Assembly (NCBI GenBank): GCA_963733035.1
Contig: CAVTBU010000008.1
Location: 352,001 to 416,000, forward strand
Source: Pirellulales bacterium
GTDB lineage: Bacteria > Planctomycetota > Planctomycetia > Pirellulales > PALSA-1355
Direction: 5' to 3'
DNA length: 64,000 nucleotides
The position numbers and the translations under genes were made by a program. Of this stretch, positions 29,660-38,543 are shown piece after piece. The stretch's first letter is position 1. Each line of letters opens with the position of its first letter. The notes beneath the pieces were generated by a model, which was given only the letters and a program-made list of their open reading frames with translations, made no database searches and was not told where the DNA came from.

Positions 29660-30754
29660 TTACATCCGCCGCCGACGCCACCTCAAAACGCCCATGCCCA
29701 CCAGACCGGTCGCCAGCATGGCCAGCGTCGAGGGCTCCGGCACGCTGTGAAGCGGAGTATAGAACAGGCAATCCGCGGGCGAACCGTCTGGCAATGGCGC
29801 TGCTCCGATCCGGATAATCGACGGGTCGGCAGTCGTCACCGAGTTGTCCCAATTCGTCCCCACACCAGGCGTGGCGCCATGGTAGCTTCCATTCTCCCCC
29901 TGGAAGACGTAAAAGGCGCAGTCCGGCCCCACGGTTGCCAGGTCGCCATACGCGCCGCTGCCCGTCGCAATGTCGGTGATCGTCGGGACGCCCGTGTATC
30001 CGGGTCCCAAAACATATTGCGAAATCGTGCCGTCGTTGTTGTTGCTGTAGAGCGTGTCGCTCGTGGCCGTGGCGTTGAAGGCCAACCCGTCGGGATAGTG
30101 CGCGGTAGCGAAGGAATTGACGACTGAACCGGTGCTCGTGAGGATTGTGATCGTCTGGTTCGTCTGCCCAGTAATGGCGAGGTTTCCCGCCGGCCCCGAT
30201 ACCATTCCGTCGACCAGTGCGTTCGACGTGTAGATCAGCGTGTTCGTGCCACCTACCGGGTCGTAGATATAGACGTTGCTGTTGGAGCCACTATCCGTAT
30301 ACGCGATGCGTCCGTCGGGCATGGTCGTGATTCCGTATATCCCCGCGGCCGTTCCAGCCAATGTCTGCGCTGGGGCCGCCCAGTTGGATGGATCGAATCG
30401 CTGTAGCCCCGCGTTGGTCACCGCGTAGATGTAGCCGTCCAGGCCGTTGGTCATGCCCGTGCCGCTGGCCAAACCGGTGATCGTGTGCGTCGCGATCACG
30501 CCGTGTAGCGAAGTTCCTTGGTAAGTCGAGTTCTGCGTCGGGCTGTACTCGAGGATTGTGGCGCCGTTGCGCGAGAGCAGGTGATCGTTGCTGGTCCACG
30601 CCATTCCAGCGTAGGCCGAAGGGCCGGCATAAATCTCCTGGGTGAAGGCCGGGTCCAGGTACGGGAATTGATCGGCCAGCGCGCCAGTCGCAAGGATTGC
30701 ACTTACGAAACCGGCAAACAATCCAACGAAGGCCATACGAAATGCGCGTGTCAT
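29660..30754 (-). CDS. PEP-CTERM surface protein, probable beta-propeller
   Basis: Signal peptide; Gly/Thr/Ser-rich repeats (GLDGYIY, MPDGRIAY, PDGLAF); C-terminal VPEPSTLAMLATGLVGMGVLRWRRRR. Confidence 0.88.
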   Translation of the reverse strand: MTRAFRMAFVGLFAGFVSAILATGALADQFPYLDPAFTQEIYAGPSAYAGMAWTSNDHLLSRNGATILEYSPTQNSTYQGTSLHGVIATHTITGLASGTGMTNGLDGYIYAVTNAGLQRFDPSNWAAPAQTLAGTAAGIYGITTMPDGRIAYTDSGSNSNVYIYDPVGGTNTLIYTSNALVDGMVSGPAGNLAITGQTNQTITILTSTGSVVNSFATAHYPDGLAFNATATSDTLYSNNNDGTISQYVLGPGYTGVPTITDIATGSGAYGDLATVGPDCAFYVFQGENGSYHGATPGVGTNWDNSVTTADPSIIRIGAAPLPDGSPADCLFYTPLHSVPEPSTLAMLATGLVGMGVLRWRRRRM

Positions 30755-31115
30755 GAGCGAACTCCATCGAAACAGAGAAGAGGTCGGACAAGAAAGATCG
30801 GTCCAGGGGCGCGATTCAGGAAGGGCCGCCAACGCTCCGACTGGACGGCGCGATTATCCACTGGCGAATGACTAGCGCCTAGCTGGGCGTTTCAAATGGG
30901 CTGGTGGCAGATTCACCGAAGCAGGTCCACTCGCTTGCTGACAAGCGATCGTCAAGTTAGTTTGTACACAAAGTAATTTCGCGCTGAGCTGTAATGCAAA
31001 TCTCGAATTGGGCCGGGACCTTTGCCCGTGTCACGTCAAATGTATGGCAGCGCAAACGCCCGCGGCTAGAATGGCCCCAACTCCTCGATCCGATGTTCCT
31101 CGCTCCAGGTCACTC

Positions 31116-32461
31116 ATGTTGACAACGATCCAAATTCGAACCTTTGTTTTTGCCTGTCTCATGGCTGTCCTTTCGGCAGCAGGTGCCGTCGCACAGGAGA
31201 ACTGGACACGCTTCCGCGGCAGCGACGCCACGGGCGTCGTGCCAGACGATCCGCGGCTACCCGAAGTGTGGGATCAGGAAACGGGCGTCCTGTGGCAAAC
31301 CGACATCCCCGGTCGCGGCTGGGGCAGCCCGATCGTGTGGGGCGACCGCGTGTTCGTTTCGGCTGTGCATAGCGACGCCGACTACGAAGCCCCCAAGGCG
31401 GGCCTGTATCTCGGCCAAGGCCGGGGCGAACCGCCCGACTCGGTGCATCACTGGATGGTCTATTGCCTGAGCCTCGACTCGGGCGAGTTGCTCTGGAAGC
31501 ACGAGGCACACACCGGCAAGCCCGACGTGCCGCGGCATCCCAAAAACACCTATGCCGCCGAAACGCCGACGACCGATGGTCAACGGCTGTACGTGCTGTT
31601 TGGCGATGTCGGCCTCTATGCCTACGACTTTGACGGTAAGCCGCTTTGGACGCACAGCATCGAGCCCAAAAAGACTTTCTTCGGCTATGGCGCCGCCGCG
31701 TCTCCGGTCGTGCAGGACGATCAGGTGATCATGGTCTACGACAACCTCGAGGAGTCGTACATCGCCGCCTTCGATAGCGCCACCGGCGAGCCCCGTTGGA
31801 AAGTCCTCCGCGATGAGAAGAAGAGCTGGTCGACGCCGCTCGTGTGGCGGCACGACGGCCGCACCGAAATCGTCACCACTGGCGAGAAAGAGAACCGCTC
31901 GTACTCACCCGAAGGCGAACTGCTGTGGCATTTCGACGGCAAGATGTCGGTGCTGACCATCCCTTCGCCGCTAGCGGCCGACGGCTTGCTCTACATCACG
32001 TCCGGCTACTTTCAGGATCAAAAACGGCCCATCTACGCCATCCGACCGGGAGCCTCGGGCGACATCTCGCTGGCCGAGGGTGAAACGTCCAACGATTCCA
32101 TCGTCTGGTCGCGCAAAAGATGGGGCCGTATAACACGTCTCCAATCGTGTATCGCGGCTATTACTACACACTGCTCGACCGCGGCATGCTCACTTGCCAC
32201 GATGCCAAGACCGGCGAACTCGTCTTCGATCGCACCCGCTTCCCGCAGGGGACCTCCTTCACCGCTTCACCCTGGGCCTACAACGGCAAGCTGTTCTTCC
32301 TCGACGAGAACGGCACCACCCACGTCATGCCCGCCGGCCCCGAATTCAGCATCGAGCGCACCAACCCGCTCGACGAGCTCTGCCTGGCCACCCCGTCCAT
32401 CAGCCAAGGCAAGCTGCTAATCCGCACGGCGTCGAAGGTGGTTTGCATCGGAGGGGAGTGA
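31116..32461 (+). CDS. PQQ-binding-like beta-propeller repeat protein; frameshift ~32115
   Basis: ENWTRFRG, GWGSPIVWGDRVF, ASPVV, SWSTP; continues in ORF 32120-32461 (YNTSPIVY...LATPSISQGKLLIRT). Confidence 0.85.
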
Positions 32462-32529
32462 ACCGCTCAGCCTGAGGTCACGAAAACTCGTGTGATCTTG
32501 CCAGTCAGGCGCCTTTTTACGGTTGGAGC

Positions 32530-32558
32530 TTGACACGAGTGCGGCGAGTTCTTAACCT
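32530..32558 (+). promoter_or_regulatory. Sigma70-type promoter upstream of the RAPP leader ORF
   Basis: TTGACA-17 nt-TAACCT. Confidence 0.6.
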
Positions 32559-32618
32559 CTAACTTGGTCGGACCGCCAAGGTTGTTTTGCGTTGCTGAAC
32601 GTATTGGCGGTTTTTTTC

Positions 32619-33104
32619 ATGCGCGTTGTCGTACCACGCACGTTTTGCCCCATTTTCGCGGCCTTTTTTGGCTTCGTCTCGCTGTTTGGGCAAGGCCTGC
32701 ATCTGCTGGTCGAGCACACCGACCACAGCGCGGCTGGCTGCTGCGCCTGCGATCACGCCGACGCCGCTCGCCTGCGGAATCGCCATTCCTCGGGTTGTCA
32801 TGCGGACCAGGGATGTGCCGACGAGCGGCATGCGGCGCCTCGCAAGCCGGCGCCTACGGTCACGACCCAGGCGTCGATGGCACCGCAATGGACGAGCGCC
32901 GGACACGACCCGCACAACTGCCCGATTTGCAGTTACCTCGCGCAGGCCCAGTGGACAACCACTGCCCCGGCGGCCGTCCTAACAGCGCTGGTCGCTCCTC
33001 TTACGCCCTGCGGCCAGCAGCGTCTATTCCTCGTTCGTGCCGGCGTCTATCACTCGCGCGCTCCGCCGATCGGGTGCGCTCCATCACGCCTAAGAAGCGC
33101 CTAG
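32619..33104 (+). CDS. DUF2946-like His/Cys-rich protein with CxxC and C-terminal RAPP motif (putative arrest peptide)
   Basis: Hydrophobic N-terminus ending GQGLHLL; HTDH...CCACDH; HDPHNCPICSYLAQ; HSRAPP (RAPP codons 33057-33068). Confidence 0.75.
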   Translation: MRVVVPRTFCPIFAAFFGFVSLFGQGLHLLVEHTDHSAAGCCACDHADAARLRNRHSSGCHADQGCADERHAAPRKPAPTVTTQASMAPQWTSAGHDPHNCPICSYLAQAQWTTTAPAAVLTALVAPLTPCGQQRLFLVRAGVYHSRAPPIGCAPSRLRSA

Positions 33105-33487
33105 CCCTCATTCCGTTCGGCTTGGTGTTTCGCTGCTTGTGCCACGCTCTGTAGCTCGCGTCGAGCCATGGTTGCACCTTGCGCTTGAGCCAAGGCTCGT
33201 GCGCTGTATGGGTCGGGCACTTCGTCGAGATCGAACCGTTCGGCCATGAGTTCGAACGGTGTGAATACACGTGTTGATTTGTGCTTCTCCGCCTCCGGCG
33301 GCGGCCGTTGAGCGATTGATGCGGTCCGACCAAACCGCGCTCACGCGCCGCCGGAGCGGACGTTGCGCCGCGATGCGTCAACGATGACCGCCGTGAACGA
33401 CAAAGGAAATCTGCGATGAGCAATCGGAACCAGTTTTTCGCGCCCCGAATCGATGCGCGCTGCCTCGTCTTCGACCCGGTTTCAGCT

Positions 33488-34257
33488 ATGGAGGGGTTTG
33501 GAATCAGCACCCAGCGCGACGGCAGAATACTATCCGCCGCCGCCCCCTACATGGTTTCACGCTCGTCGAGTTGTTGGTCGTCGTGGCGGTGATCGGCCTG
33601 CTGTTTGGGCTGCTACTGCCGGCCGTGCAGATGTCGCGCGAGCAAGCCCGCATCGCCAACTGCGCCAGCAATCTGCGGCAGGTGGGCATCGCCATGATCC
33701 GGTTCTGCGACGACCACCACGGACGATGGCCAGAGACGACGCACACCAGCGAGCCCGATCCGGTGACAGGCAAGTACACCCACGCCTGGATCTACACGCT
33801 GGCGCCCTACCTGGAGGACGTCGACGCGATTCGCATCTGTCCGGACGATCTTGCCGGTGACTTGCGATTGGCGGGCAAAGGCACGAGCTACACGATGAAC
33901 GGCTACCTCTCGAAGGAGGCGCTGCCCCCCTTCGACAATCTGCGAAAAGTCGTCTCGACGCACGAAACCATCGTCGCGTTCGAACTTGCCGAGATCAAGG
34001 ACACCGGCGCGATGAAAACGGGCAACCCGAACGACATCGACGTCTACAACGATCACGTCCACTCGTGGAACTGGTTCGCCATGTCGACGCTAAGCGCAGG
34101 GCTGGGGATGACAGCCATCGGCAACGAGATCGCGGTGGAGCGACACAGCGGCACGACCCACTTCTTGTACGCCGACGGCCACGTCGAACTGGTCCCGGTC
34201 GAACAGATCGCGCGGTGGGTAGATGAGGGACACAACTTCGCAAAGCCGCCTCAATAA
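33488..34257 (+). CDS. DUF1559-type prepilin N-terminal cleavage/methylation protein with H-X9-DG; 5' end apparently frameshifted
   Basis: [40 protein letters not shown]...[25 protein letters not shown]. No in-frame start upstream of GF; nearest ATGs (33416, 33488) are one frame off. Confidence 0.85.
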
Positions 34258-34457
34258 TCCGCACCTCGCAAGTGCACCGAAAAGCAACCACACAAGCGAC
34301 TCGATAAGGACCGCCAATGCATGCACGCAGTTAGTTCCCACGATCGTCCGCCACTGTCGCGAGTAGTGTGGCAGGCGGCGAGCGGCGTTGAGAACACGTG
34401 AACCACGAATTCGCAAACCTAAACGACTACTCAGATTTCATTGAAAGGTGTATTTCC

Positions 34458-35216
34458 ATGCGTGTTTTGTCTTTGCTTCTCCTGTTGGTCGCCCTAGTTG
34501 TCCGGCCGACGGCCACGCGCGCCCACGACGATGTTGCTCCCTACGAACTTAACGGCAAAGTCGCCACGGGTGGCCACGACGATATCCTTGCTTCCAACAC
34601 GGTTACTGAAAACGTGTTCGGGTTTGACTTTGGTGAAGACCCGATGATTCCCTACATCATCGGCGACCCGGGATTCAACAACGGGGCCTTCGGCATCGGG
34701 GTCTTTCCTAATAACGGCCTGCTGCCAGCGAACTTTACGTTGGGTCTCACAATCACTCGGGACCTGGAATACTGGGACGGCACCGGAGCCGTCTCGTTCG
34801 CTCCCGCATCGCCGAGCGCGTCGCTGGGATTGAGCCACCTCAGTTCGACGATCGATATCACCGGCACCTCGGGCATCGGCGCGGCGCTGACGATCGGCAG
34901 CACGGGGAGCGCTGGCCGGCTGCATGTGCACCTGCAATCGGCGCTGACCGACTCGATCGGCGACCCAGCCAACGGCATCTATCTCATCGGGATGCAGTTG
35001 AGCTTGCCCGGCTCCGGACTGGCCGACTCCGATCCGATCTACATCGTCTACAACAGTTTCATGGACGAGGCCGTGCACGATGAAGCGATCGGGTGGGTCG
35101 CCACGAACCTTGTGCCCGAGCCATCGACATGGACGATGTGTCTGATGGCCTTGGTTTCAATCGCAGTATGCGTCACGCGAGGGCAACTGCGCCGTCCGCA
35201 ACGCGCGGCGAGATAA
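34458..35216 (+). CDS. PEP-CTERM surface protein with His motifs (putative metal binding)
   Basis: Signal peptide cleaving at ATRA/HDD; GGHDD, GRLHVHL, GIYL, VHDEA; C-terminal VPEPSTW + TM + basic tail. Confidence 0.8.
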   Translation: MRVLSLLLLLVALVVRPTATRAHDDVAPYELNGKVATGGHDDILASNTVTENVFGFDFGEDPMIPYIIGDPGFNNGAFGIGVFPNNGLLPANFTLGLTITRDLEYWDGTGAVSFAPASPSASLGLSHLSSTIDITGTSGIGAALTIGSTGSAGRLHVHLQSALTDSIGDPANGIYLIGMQLSLPGSGLADSDPIYIVYNSFMDEAVHDEAIGWVATNLVPEPSTWTMCLMALVSIAVCVTRGQLRRPQRAAR

Positions 35217-35417
35217 CCCGTCGGCGGGATACCTCGCTCGCCAACCATGCCGCACGCGTCGTGCCCGGCCAATCCACAAGCCAGGCACGACGCTCGGCAT
35301 TTCAATCGCAAGAGAATTTTCTGTTTAATCGCGCCAGGCGGGCGAAAGATCAGTATCTGCCGCGGCAGAAAGCAGTCGCGTGCGAAAATCAGACAAGCAT
35401 GCCCCTCGCAGGCCGCG

Positions 35418-36359
35418 TCAGTAGCCGGTCCTTTCGACGGACCGGGGATCCTCCACCACGTCTCCGCTGTGCAGAATACCGTCCATTGCCCGGAGCCGAT
35501 TCTCTCCGCTGGCGTCGTAATACGGCTTGTTCGTGTCGACTTCATGCACCATCAGCCCCGGGCGGTGCTCGGCCAGCCGCTGCACGATGCGCCCGTCCGG
35601 GGTGATCAGCAGACTCGGCCAGGCCTCCGGCGCGCTCGAATTGTTCATCGAGACGAACATCGCGTTGGTGGCCGCCCGCGTTTGTCCGGTCGCAGGCATA
35701 ATAATCGGGTGTACGGCACCCGACTTCATGCGTGCGTTGTGGAAGGAGTGGAGCATCAACTGCACGCCGCGGCGGCAATACTCCCGGTACAGCTCCGGAA
35801 AGCGAATGTCGTAGCAGACCAACATCCCGCACTGCACTCCGTTCACCTCGAACACCACAAAGTGATCTCCGGGCGAATAGTGCTTCAGATCGCCGCCGGT
35901 GCAGAATCGCTTGTCGTAGCGATCGACGATCTGGCCCTCGGGATTGATGACGTACAGCGAGTTGTGCGGTTTGTGCTCGCCCGTCAGCCGGTGCGTGCTC
36001 CCCAGCACGACCCATTGATCCAACTCGTCGGCCAGCTTCAGAATCGAAGCCGTCTCGGCGCGCAATAACTCCCAATCGAACTCCTCAAGCGACTCGACTT
36101 CAACGCCCGCGTATCCCGATAGCGCGCACTCCGAAAAGTGCACGAGGTCGGCCTCCTGGGCCGCAGCCAGCCGCATCTGTTTGCGAATCCACTCGGCGTT
36201 GGCCGCCACGTCGGCTGACACCGGAAACTGGCACGTCGCCAGCATCAGCCGCCCCGACGTGTGCTTCTCTGACGAAGTTGACGTTTCTTCGCCAGCACGC
36301 ACAAGACCTACACAAACAACCAGCAAGAACAGGGCGGGTAGCGCGAATCGGTGCAACAT
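35418..36359 (-). CDS. Carbon-nitrogen hydrolase (nitrilase family) with signal peptide
   Basis: E-K-C triad: FSECALSGY, YDKRF, VCYDIRFPE. Confidence 0.88.
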   Translation of the reverse strand: MLHRFALPALFLLVVCVGLVRAGEETSTSSEKHTSGRLMLATCQFPVSADVAANAEWIRKQMRLAAAQEADLVHFSECALSGYAGVEVESLEEFDWELLRAETASILKLADELDQWVVLGSTHRLTGEHKPHNSLYVINPEGQIVDRYDKRFCTGGDLKHYSPGDHFVVFEVNGVQCGMLVCYDIRFPELYREYCRRGVQLMLHSFHNARMKSGAVHPIIMPATGQTRAATNAMFVSMNNSSAPEAWPSLLITPDGRIVQRLAEHRPGLMVHEVDTNKPYYDASGENRLRAMDGILHSGDVVEDPRSVERTGY

Positions 36360-36989
36360 GGGATGTCCTTTGATAGTTCGAGGACAACGCTCGCGTCACG
36401 TTGACGCGCGCCGCTTTCTGGACGGCCAAAGGGGATCGTCGCACATTCTACCACGGCACACGGGACGGCGCCGCCGACCCTGTAATTGAGACGTCCCCAA
36501 CACTTCGCCGGCTCCTGCCGCGCTCACGGCGTGAACCGCGCGCCGCGAGTGCGTCTTAGTATTCAGTTCCGACATTTGCATGAACAGACGTAACTGGCCC
36601 CTTCCACCCTTGCGTGAATACGTCTCTCGCAAAACAGGGTTTTTCCTCTCGGTTGCGCCGCGCTCACACTCTCGCGGTTTGCTGCTTTCAATCGGGCCAG
36701 CATTTTCGGTAGGGTAGGGTCGAGCAGTTCTAAACTCGGCGAAGAGATGCGCGCACAAATCGTCAAACAGGGTCCTTTGCGGAAAATAGCTGCGAGTTGG
36801 TCGACAATTTTTCGGGCTCCCATGGAAAAGAAAAAGAGTCACGAACAAATCGCACCAAAATCGGGCCACTCAGAATTCTCGGAAATCCGAATCGGGCCAA
36901 CTCGACGCCCAAAGCAAGTACGGTTGGCAAACGACATGTTTGGACAGGCACCGAAGAATGGCGCGCCGCCGACGCCGAGCCAGGATGGG

Positions 36990-37575
36990 CTAGTCCGCGT
37001 CGGGAAAGTGCTTGCGAATGACCATCTCGCCCAGACGCCGAGCGACGTCGATCGTTTGTCGATCACCGGTGATGTGCCGCGTGACGTAGGCCCCCTCGAT
37101 GATCAGGCACAGTTCGCGGGCCAGCGCGGCCGGATCGGCCGCGCCGCCCCGTTTGGCAATCCGGCGTACCGTCGCTTCATAGGTCTGCTTCAGCGCGATG
37201 CGCGGCCTGATGCGCCGGGTCGTGCGGCAGCGGAAACTCGATGGTCACGTTGACGAAAATACAGCCGTGCCAGTCATCTTTCTCAATGAACGTCTCGACC
37301 AAATCAAACAGCGTCCGCAGTTGGCCCACGGCCGTGGGTCCACCGCGCTCCTTGAGCATGGCCGTCAGCGTCGCGCCCAACCAGCGCTGCTGTTCCTCGA
37401 GCACGGCGACCATCAGGTCTTCCTTGCATTCGAAGTGCTTGTAAAAGGCGGTCTTGCTGATGCCGACATCCGAGTAGATCTGGTCCAGCCCGACGTTGCG
37501 AAAACCGTCGCGGTAGAACCGCTGATGGGCCGCTTCGATCAGTCGCTCGCGCGTTGTTTTCTCAGTGGTTTTCAT
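36990..37575 (-). CDS. TetR/AcrR-family regulator; frameshift ~37200
   Basis: HTH GFRNVGLDQI...GISKTAFYKHF..KEDL; HGCIFVN; shifted frame continues IALKQTYE...LARELCLIIEGAY...FPDAD* to TAG at 36990. Confidence 0.85.
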
Positions 37576-37603
37576 GGCCGTATGTTCAGCAAGTGGACCA
37601 CAA

Positions 37604-37621
37604 GTACACCGGCGAGTGTAC
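37604..37621. promoter_or_regulatory. Putative TetR operator
   Basis: Inverted repeat GTACAC-N6-GTGTAC about 30 bp upstream of the tetR ATG, between tetR and the divergent mddA. Confidence 0.6.
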
Positions 37622-37769
37622 CACAAGTCAACTTGTCGCCGGAGCAAGCTGCACGATATTTCACACAGGGAATCAATCCTACGTCAACATCGGCGGCACC
37701 GTCGGTGGGCGAACCAATCGCCCGTCGGCAGCGTCTGCCTGAAAACCTAATTCTGCGTGGAGGTGCAAA

Positions 37770-38543
37770 ATGAAACGCTGGTTGTATTTGGCCTACGGCG
37801 TCGCAGGCTACCTGGCCTTTCTGGGAATTTACGCTTACTTTGCCGCATTCACCGGCAACTTCCTGGTGCCCAATACAATTGACGCGCCGGTTACCACGCC
37901 GCTCGTCGCGGCGGTCGCCATCAACCTGTTGCTGGTGGGCGCCTTTGCCGCCCAGCATTCGATCATGGCGCGACCAGCGTTCAAACAACTTTGGACGCGC
38001 ATCGTTCCTCAGCCAATCGAACGCACCACGTACGTGATGCTTTCGAACCTGGCAACCGTGCTTTTGATTTGGCAGTGGCGGCCGATCGACGCCGTCGTTT
38101 GGGACGTGCGGCAACCGATTGCGCGGGGTGCCTTGTGGGGGCTGTTTGCCGCCGGTTGGCTGGCCGTGCCGCTGGTCAGCCTACTGATCAATCACTTCGA
38201 CCTGTTCGGCCTGCGGCAAGTCTGGCTCTACTTCCGTGGTCGGCCTTACACGGCGTTGCCGTTCCGCACGCCGCTGGCCTACGCCCACGTGCGCCATCCA
38301 CTCTATCTCGCGTGGGGGCTGGCGTTCTGGGCAATACCAACCATGACGGCAGGACATCTGCTGTTCGCTGCTTCATTGTCGATCTATATGGCCCTGGCCG
38401 CGCTTGTTGAGGAGCGCGATCTGGTCGCGCATTTCGGGCACTCGTATCACCGGTATCGCCAAAGCGTCCCCATGTTCGTGCCGAAATTAAGGCCGGCTCC
38501 GTCCATCGATGCCGCCGAGGAGAGCAAGCCTGCGAGCGGTTAG
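37770..38543 (+). CDS. mddA: Methanethiol S-methyltransferase (MddA / isoprenylcysteine methyltransferase family)
   Basis: QHSIMARPAFK, IERTTYV, INHFDLFGLRQV, VRHPLY, PTMTAGHLLFA, EERDLV. Confidence 0.8.
   Translation: MKRWLYLAYGVAGYLAFLGIYAYFAAFTGNFLVPNTIDAPVTTPLVAAVAINLLLVGAFAAQHSIMARPAFKQLWTRIVPQPIERTTYVMLSNLATVLLIWQWRPIDAVVWDVRQPIARGALWGLFAAGWLAVPLVSLLINHFDLFGLRQVWLYFRGRPYTALPFRTPLAYAHVRHPLYLAWGLAFWAIPTMTAGHLLFAASLSIYMALAALVEERDLVAHFGHSYHRYRQSVPMFVPKLRPAPSIDAAEESKPASG

Follow-up and report, generated by a model that had tools for sequence, protein, structure and literature searches.

A conserved small open reading frame ending in RAPP, a putative metal-responsive arrest leader, precedes DUF1559 and PEP-CTERM genes in a Pirellulales genome

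Few paralogous families of Planctomycetota and neighbouring groups are larger than the DUF1559 proteins, for which we know of no function. A locus in the genome of a Pirellulales bacterium raises the question whether the synthesis of one such protein is governed by a small upstream open reading frame (ORF) whose product responds to a metal by arresting its own ribosome. The locus lies in a 64,000-nucleotide (nt) stretch of G+C-rich DNA (GenBank assembly GCA_963733035.1, 92% complete; contig CAVTBU010000008.1, positions 352,001 to 416,000), referred to here as the window, and all coordinates are positions in it. An ORF of 161 amino acids (aa) at 32619-33104 is followed on the same strand by a DUF1559 prepilin-like gene and by a gene for a PEP-CTERM protein. 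Comparison with related genomes indicates that this ORF, called the leader below, is a real and conserved gene, and its anatomy makes it probable that it acts as an arrest leader responsive to a metal, like members of the CruR/CutF (DUF2946) class. Such a leader, placed before a DUF1559/PEP-CTERM pair, would give a direct experimental handle on DUF1559 function. The parts of the leader that matter for this question are as follows.

32619..33104, plus strand: leader ORF, 161 aa, read as a divergent DUF2946/CruR-type upstream ORF; ATG at 32619, stop codon at 33102-33104
32640..32690, plus strand: N-terminal hydrophobic export anchor, residues 8-24, then the invariant G24 and H28; best 17-residue Kyte-Doolittle mean 1.85
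32919..32930, plus strand: CPIC (C101, C104), the invariant CxxC, in 20/20 aligned copies and 147/147 aligned wider relatives
33057..33068, plus strand: RAPP codons (R147-P150), predicted stall site; R, P and P invariant, A replaced by G in 2/20, codons synonymously variable, P and A sites assigned by analogy with CruR

Of 61 related genomes searched in six frames, 28 gave a match to the leader at E≤0.01, and about 17 of these matches fell below 1e-5; among the other genomes of the same family, 20 of 32 carry a match. These relatives are all kin, so the counts across them are not independent. Twenty copies of the leader were aligned (one more, at locus L057, was excluded for a broken frame), gene order was counted over the 9-kb stretches around 20 homologous leaders, and RNA elements were aligned over 21 orthologous loci. 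The leaders range from 128 to 179 aa in length and contain 6-21 His and 4-11 Cys residues each (10 and 10 in the window copy), and the tail after the two prolines varies from 1 to 11 residues (11 in the window copy, mostly 6 in orthologues). Nine residues are invariant in the 20 copies: M1, G24, H28, H46, C101, C104, R147, P149 and P150; A148 is replaced by Gly in two. Between the second Cys and the Arg the spacing is 42 residues in 18 copies; the other two have 43. The Arg, Ala and Pro codons differ synonymously among the copies, and the ratio of nonsynonymous to synonymous polymorphism (pN/pS) was 0.39-0.56 in six pairs. The N-terminus is basic and then hydrophobic, and the C-terminal region of the window copy reads HSRAPP. 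Export anchors were called by Kyte-Doolittle hydropathy in 17-residue windows alone: a hydrophobic 17-mer (1.6-2.1) with 1-4 Lys or Arg before it is the top-scoring segment and N-terminal in 19 of the 20 leaders, and in the 20th such a 17-mer exists and is outscored by a later segment. An earlier sequence-only reading of the window had listed a promoter, the ORF, CPIC, HSRAPP, DHVHS and PEP-CTERM motifs, every one of which we found where it had been placed; the export-like N-terminus that it described is a family trait, and the conservation of CxxC and RAPP on which it had staked its case extends to all 20 copies, with the two Ala-to-Gly changes mentioned above. We concluded from this comparison that the leader is a genuine gene under selection.

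A word-index protein search with the leader returned two relatives only, and an exhaustive profile search was needed to reach the wider family; a search of NCBIfam with the leader gave no match. Against 1.84 billion representatives the profile gave 1222 proteins at E≤0.001, of which 177 reached E≤1e-10. The query was built from the 20 leaders and itself carries CxxC and RAPP, so that the presence of these motifs in the matches is partly by construction. Among the best 150 of the 1222 matches, 146 have R[A/G/S]PP within 25 residues of the C-terminus (RAPP in 73, RGPP in 72, RSPP in one), and the other four look truncated. The CxxC-to-RxPP distance in those 146 proteins was 42 (37 proteins), 43 (86) or 44 (21) residues, with 39 and 40 found once each. 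What is informative in these wider relatives is that RAPP and RGPP are used about equally often and that the spacing varies little.

The combination of CxxC and RAPP had been put forward as the DUF2946 pattern, which agrees with the definition given by Roy et al. (2022; PMC9426467): a CXXC motif, RAPP and a spacing between them kept to one or two residues (45 in CruR), together with a signal for export and a place at the head of the operon, ahead of a long intergenic region. In the same account copper control through Rho requires the two motifs as well as their spacing, and "a few" DUF2946 proteins are noted in Planctomycetes. The leader has CxxC, R[A/G]PP near the stop codon, near-fixed spacing, an N-terminal anchor, the first position in a putative operon and a long intergenic region behind it. 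It fails on the hidden Markov model (HMM) score: a search of 32619-33104 against the Pfam DUF2946 model (PF11162, gathering cut-off 23.7 bits) gave no match even at E≤1. Thus the proposal of a DUF2946/CruR-type leader stands for its defining anatomy, while the profile match that it called for is found in relatives only; 13 of the 20 orthologues touch PF11162 at E≤10, the best of them with an E value of 5.1e-6. Elsewhere in the source genome a second small ORF scores exactly 23.7 bits against PF11162 and ends in QSRAPPLAV, and hhalign of the leader family against this ORF gave 91% probability (E 9.9e-7) over the part from CxxC to RAPP. Because all of the DUF2946 features of Roy et al. except the HMM score are present, we read the leader as a divergent, distant relative of DUF2946, below Pfam-level membership.

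The two genes downstream, which would be the regulated cargo, have these features.

33532..34257, plus strand: DUF1559 prepilin-like gene, mature part from GFTLVELL (33553); start codon uncertain, in-frame ATC at 33532
34051..34065, plus strand: DHVHS motif of the DUF1559 protein, invariant in 16/16 orthologues
34458..35216, plus strand: PEP-CTERM protein, 252 aa, with signal peptide, beta-sandwich and VPEP anchor (PF07589)
34923..34931, plus strand: HVH of LHVHL (H156, H158) in the PEP-CTERM protein, both His invariant in 15/15 orthologues

The trio of leader, DUF1559 gene and PEP-CTERM gene, which the sequence-only reading had suggested looking for across Planctomycetota, occurs on the same strand and in the same order in 16 of the 20 fetched loci, with 61-84% (DUF1559) and 34-78% (PEP-CTERM) identity to the window proteins; in one of the 16 (L041) an extra PEP-CTERM paralogue lies between the leader and the DUF1559 gene. 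Three loci (L047, L052 and L056) have a longer DUF1559-type gene and no PEP-CTERM match in the fetched stretch, which for L056 ends at the contig end. At L051 (G016:C3) the promoter, the leader and the spacer RNA element described below are present; no DUF1559 or PEP-CTERM match was found in the stretch examined and no prepilin motif within 2.4 kb downstream. The leader stop codon and the prepilin motif are 219-496 nt apart in 17 loci and ~1.4 kb apart in two. The untranslated spacer in the window is ~430 nt, and no intrinsic terminator-like site was found in this gap. A related-locus search with the PEP-CTERM protein returned one locus, from a metagenome-assembled genome of an uncultured Planctomycetaceae bacterium, and the public sequencing runs for the locus amount to four DNA rows from a single soil-metagenome study.

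Both family assignments of the cargo held in the domain searches. The DUF1559 protein scored above the cut-offs for PF07596 (40.8 bits; cut-off 23.3), the N_methyl family PF07963 (28.4; 21.2) and the H-X9-DG family TIGR04294 (22.6; 19), and in 16 orthologues DHVHS, an RH pair and the H-X9-DG histidines are invariant. Most orthologues start with ATG five codons before the prepilin motif; the ATC at 33532 in the window is seven codons before it, and L054 has an ATT/ATC equivalently placed. The PEP-CTERM protein matched PF07589 with 22.5 bits (cut-off 20.7) at residues 219-239, its VPEP is invariant, and two exosortase genes (PF09721) are found in the genome, on another contig. Its motifs are HDD after the predicted signal peptide, GGHDD, LHVHL and VHDE; D25, D41, D42, H156 and H158 are invariant in 15 orthologues and H207 is kept in 14. 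By the AxA rule, H23 is predicted to be the first residue after the signal peptide in ~9 orthologues. With 6 His in 252 aa the protein does not deserve the term "His-rich" that it had been given. Its AlphaFold model is a beta-sandwich with a predicted local distance difference test (pLDDT) score of 70.8. Foldseek against the PDB matched it to generic Ig-like sandwiches with template-modelling (TM) scores of 0.2-0.3; the copper-binding folds considered were YcnI, CopC and PCuAC, and YcnI came up only at rank 24 (probability 0.66, TM 0.19/0.30). In a wide VIA-align search the best matches were pilin and adhesin beta-sandwiches (best Z 7.0). Complex prediction on the soluble parts of the two cargo proteins gave a score of 0.53 (runs 0.49, 0.65 and 0.53) against 0.01 for the best control, the runs sharing at least 91% of contacts with a partner pLDDT of at least 90. 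Of 157 solved complexes 116 reach the mark used in this prediction, as do 2 of 215 mismatches; with a score of 0.60 or under, only 18 of the 157 reach it, and so do both passing mismatches. The prediction thus lends weak support to a complex between the DUF1559 and PEP-CTERM proteins.

Several loci depart from this pattern in other ways. At L057 (G032:C1) the leader frame is broken after ~35 residues, yet the locus still has its promoter, the 5' and spacer elements and the two cargo genes. At L053 (G030:C11) the PEP-CTERM orthologue is split in two pieces. In a comparison with G001-G003, G006, G020 and G024, the window operon is nearer to the copies of another genus than to those of its own: leader identity is 45-49% to the other-genus copies against 33-40% within the genus, and DUF1559 identity is 76-84% against 67-69%. 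This closer match outside the genus suggests paralogy or transfer of the operon. Downstream of the second DUF2946-scoring ORF of the source genome (G000:C7:393526-396400; L062 2526-5397) come a single-copy IS110-like transposase gene, which has the opposite orientation, and then a DUF1559 gene; over the N-terminus of the latter and the 63 nt preceding it, identity to window 33485-33630 is 80-88%. An insertion sequence seems to have split this paralogous leader-DUF1559 pair, at which no spacer RNA element was found. The 63 nt before GFTLVELL in the window might be an insertion-sequence remnant; the IS110-like element is single-copy in the genome and its ends are undefinable.

The DNA around the leader carries further conserved features, a promoter and two RNA elements.

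32530..32558, plus strand: promoter, TTGACA at 32530-32535, 17-nt spacer and TAACCT at 32553-32558; GCTTGACA-17-TAnAnT aligned across orthologous loci
32565..32577, plus strand: conserved 5'-terminal element TGGTCGGACCGCC, at or just after the presumed transcription start (predicted at 32565-32567), 7 or 8 bases after the -10 box
32570..32613, plus strand: hairpin of the 5' untranslated region (UTR), outer stem GACCGCC/GGCGGT closing a variable inner stem; -19.6 kcal/mol, z = -2.8, ending 5 nt before the ATG
33287..33361, plus strand: conserved structured RNA element, a four-helix extended hairpin of ~75 nt, with covariation; 20/21 loci
33321..33333, plus strand: loop core GCGGTCCGACCAA, exact reverse complement of 32564-32576

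A consensus promoter scanner called no promoter in 32400-35500, TAACCT matching the consensus at 3 of 6 positions; the promoter proposed earlier is supported by its conservation across loci, not by the scanner. The element TGGTCGGACCGCC is almost invariant, and its core GGTCGGACCGCC is retained in nearly all of the 21 aligned loci. Its 3' part forms one side of the outer stem of the 5'-UTR hairpin, with GGCGGT as the partner. The outer stem is present in most loci and its outer pairs do not vary, which speaks neither for nor against the fold; RNAalifold on the 5' UTR found only six invariant pairs and zero covariation, and single-sequence folds across loci had a mean z of -1.1. As a genome-wide regulon site GGTCGGACCGCC was rejected: the source genome has 4 occurrences as compared with 5+5 for a control pattern, which is not above the control, and the three other sites lie inside frames without a promoter or a RAPP ORF.

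The spacer element lies 150-335 nt after the leader stop codon and a variable 40-170 nt before the next start. In the alignment 92.7% of cells are paired, as compared with 35-51% for slid partners, and 11 pairs change on both sides, as compared with 4.3 ± 1.5 in shuffles (0 of 500 reach 11) and 3-9 in slid controls; its G-U pairs indicate an RNA of the plus strand. A covariance model found the element once per genome in 19 of 101 related genomes and always at the leader locus, and all of these matches but one are training sequences, the exception being a near-copy of one. An Rfam search over 32000-35600 at E≤1 returned two chance-level matches only (sR1 and Six3os1_5). In 20 of 21 loci the 5' UTR and the spacer share a perfect complement of 10-15 nt at its longest, as compared with 6-10 nt against the leader or the DUF1559 frame; at L052, a divergent locus, 5' element and loop both carry a swapped centre base. 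Co-folding of the pair gave -65.4 kcal/mol against -65.3 when each was folded separately, which makes the paired and unpaired states about equal in predicted energy. Both cores are almost invariant, and the case for long-range pairing consists of that single compensatory event. The GGTCnGACC core is also near-palindromic, and a pair of DNA sites bound by a single dimeric regulator would give the same picture.

How does this arrangement compare with known systems? The DUF2946 prototype is CruR (Bp2923), encoded ahead of bfrG and bp2921 in Bordetella pertussis (PMC9426467). As described for CruR, the leader is followed by a long untranslated spacer before the next gene (162 nt for CruR, ~430 nt here) and no intrinsic terminator. 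The spacing of CxxC and RAPP is 45 residues in CruR and 42-43 here. In contrast to CruR, the window leader falls below the Pfam threshold, has a tail of 11 residues after PP (mostly 6 in orthologues, 3 in CruR), carries a membrane anchor with invariant Gly and His, and is followed by a spacer with a covarying hairpin complementary to the mRNA 5' end. The CruR cargo is a TonB-dependent transporter and a PepSY_TM protein, whereas here a DUF1559 pseudopilin-like protein and a PEP-CTERM protein follow. Copper response and Rho dependence are CruR features, and they would apply here by analogy. A second relevant system is CutF-cutO-cutG of Rhodobacter capsulatus (bioRxiv 10.1101/2025.02.05.636593), in which an exported DUF2946-class leader is described as sensing copper outside the cytoplasm through a Cys motif, while a C-terminal proline motif stalls the ribosome and so controls the next gene, the same logic as proposed here. 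CutF has CXXXC and an EF-P-dependent PPP where the present leader has CxxC and RAPP, and its stall opens a stem-loop in which the ribosome-binding site of cutO, immediately downstream, is hidden, whereas the next start here is >220 nt away. ApdA, ApdP, ApcA and SecM (PMC10951233, PMC7897499, PMC10987492, PMC12992588) share with the leader R[A/G]PP near the C-terminus of a small exported protein upstream of a regulated gene. These proteins monitor Sec or YidC machinery encoded downstream and have no CxxC; the window leader, in contrast, has a Cys pair at a fixed distance from the arrest core, and its DUF1559 and PEP-CTERM neighbours are not localisation factors. In PMC12992588 RAPP and RGPP are reported as the strongest arrest cores, and CruR is reported to arrest in vitro.

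By analogy with these systems we propose the following sequence of events. The leader would be transcribed from the conserved promoter at 32530-32558, and its product would be directed to the membrane by the N-terminal anchor. The ribosome would stall at Arg-Ala-Pro-Pro (33057-33068), where, by analogy with the CruR toeprint in PMC12992588, Pro149 is predicted to occupy the P site and Pro150 the A site. At the stall, the CxxC pair 42 residues back would lie just outside the exit tunnel, where its occupancy by a metal, most likely copper, could set how long the stall lasts. Stall duration would in turn set the share of transcripts that pass the 430-nt spacer into the DUF1559 and PEP-CTERM genes. 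The favoured route is CruR-like, in which the stalled ribosome would block Rho-dependent termination, because the spacer is long and no terminator was found in it. Start-site unmasking of the CutF kind seems less likely because the next start is >220 nt away in every locus, and direct unmasking by the spacer hairpin is likewise unlikely given that distance and the variable 40-170 nt between hairpin and start. Within the last 150 nt of the leader, C exceeds G in 18 of 20 loci (mean +0.085), as compared with 9 of 20 after the stop codon, a bias that weakly hints at a Rho loading site. The same switch probably includes the spacer hairpin and the 5'-terminal element with which it could pair, and the two downstream proteins, with an invariant HxH each, would be the regulated cargo for metal handling in the envelope or at the surface.

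Several observations weigh against this proposal. The system in this organism is known from sequence alone, and copper as the sensed metal is suggested by CruR and CutF only. Besides the missing PF11162 match of the window leader, only 22 of the 147 wider relatives match that model at E≤0.01. The invariant G24, H28 and H46 in the anchor region exceed the needs of a throw-away export signal, and such conservation suggests that the protein has a function once it is made. The spacer has no clear C-rich, G-poor tract (skew -0.12 to +0.11), and its conserved hairpin belongs to neither published mechanism, CruR or CutF. On the cargo side, the DUF1559 frame is open from 33397 with no ATG, GTG or TTG before GFTLVELL (33553), and the window gene may have a non-canonical start, weak expression or be decaying. 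In the PEP-CTERM protein H23 is kept in 13 of 15 orthologues and H40 in 11 of 15, which leaves both non-invariant. Foldseek and VIA-align recognised no known metal-binding fold in the cargo proteins (Z at most 7.0), and the "metal-scavenging module" of the sequence-only reading was overstated, the invariant HxH motifs being its whole basis. In sum, what that reading had observed is confirmed, and its interpretation is partly supported.

Part of this evidence fits other explanations. The small protein might mainly be a stable membrane metalloprotein, either a metal chaperone or a subunit acting with the DUF1559 and PEP-CTERM proteins, in which RAPP serves folding, insertion timing or low expression. 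The invariant G24, H28 and H46 in and after the anchor, the His/Cys-rich luminal stretch, selection over the whole frame (pN/pS as above) and strict co-inheritance with the two cargo genes all agree with it. Protein function alone would hardly explain an exact spacing of 42-43 residues amid so much length variation, a spacing that matters for regulation in CruR; RAPP and RGPP are reported to be strongly avoided in proteomes unless used for arrest (PMC12992588); and a long untranslated spacer with a conserved RNA element suggests regulation. We consider this reading unlikely as the main explanation, and the metalloprotein and arrest-leader readings are mutually compatible. Somewhat more doubtful is control mainly by RNA, in which a switch made up of the 5' element and the spacer hairpin responds to a ligand, a protein or pairing, or the two serve in processing or stability, and translation of the leader is a passenger or only helps to remodel the RNA. 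Such control would account for the covariation of the spacer element, its single copy restricted to leader loci, the perfect complement between its loop and the mRNA 5' end in 20 of 21 loci, the compensatory swap at L052 and the predicted competition of the long-range pairing with the 5' hairpin beside the leader start. It has to contend with the lack of a matching Rfam family at 32000-35600 or of any suggested ligand, with near-invariant cores whose pairing is supported by one compensatory event, with the two-DNA-site reading of the near-palindrome that fits equally well, and with distant leader-DUF1559 pairs (L056 and G045) in which the element was not found and CxxC and RAPP are nevertheless retained.

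That the leader is a chance open frame in G+C-rich DNA with coincidental motifs was worth asking, since 67 ORFs of at least 50 aa overlap 30000-38000, many of them spurious, and the window leader has no family match of its own. The comparative data refute it: homologues in 28 of 61 genomes and 1222 profile matches, invariant motifs with synonymous codon variation and pN/pS <0.6, and a start ATG conserved behind a conserved promoter leave it a vanishingly small probability. The arrest-leader reading can also be extended into a three-part leader, in which the mRNA 5' end pairs with the loop ~720 nt downstream and loops out the arrest ORF; this pairing would compete with the 5' hairpin and so tie leader translation, metal-dependent stalling at RAPP and read-through into one RNA-peptide switch, and the DUF1559 pseudopilin and the PEP-CTERM beta-sandwich, with an invariant HxH each, would form a copper-capture device at the surface. 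We regard this extension as speculative and, taken whole, improbable; if true, it would provide the first metal ligand for the very large DUF1559 family.

The claim that the combination was undescribed holds in part. The Fig. 4B source data of PMC12992588, a 2025 survey, list 112 RAPP against 68 AAPP upstream ORFs before genes for a "DUF1559 domain-containing protein" (6.46-fold, adjusted p 1.05e-31); in its data a CxxC precedes RAPP by ~42-45 residues in many of these ORFs, and a few bear the annotation DUF2946. The pairing of a RAPP upstream ORF with DUF1559 is thus already in a published data table. The term "DUF1559" is absent from the main text of that survey, which, its searched supplements included, gives no PEP-CTERM synteny, RNA elements or mechanism; likewise, DUF1559, SBP_bac_10 and PEP-CTERM are absent from the text and supplements of PMC9426467 as searched. 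In full-text literature searches covering the DUF2946 and DUF1559 families, RAPP arrest peptides and CruR, neither the conserved PEP-CTERM partner nor the complementary pair of RNA elements turned up. New here are the conserved promoter, the 5'-terminal element and the covarying ~75-nt hairpin with its complementary loop. The gain lies in anatomy and testability, not in first discovery: the CruR/CutF class would be extended to a clade mostly missed by the Pfam model, to a new kind of cargo and to a conserved structured RNA with a long-range complement.

Two neighbouring genes were noted upstream of the operon. The gene at 31008-32461 looks like that of a beta-propeller protein with a frame shift near 32100-32130: the ORF at 31008-32420 ends in low-complexity text, and the ORF at 32120-32461 carries on the repeat-like sequence in another frame. 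A further PEP-CTERM-type protein is encoded at 29660-30832 on the minus strand, with the C-terminus VPEPSTLAMLATGLVGMGVLRWRRRRM.

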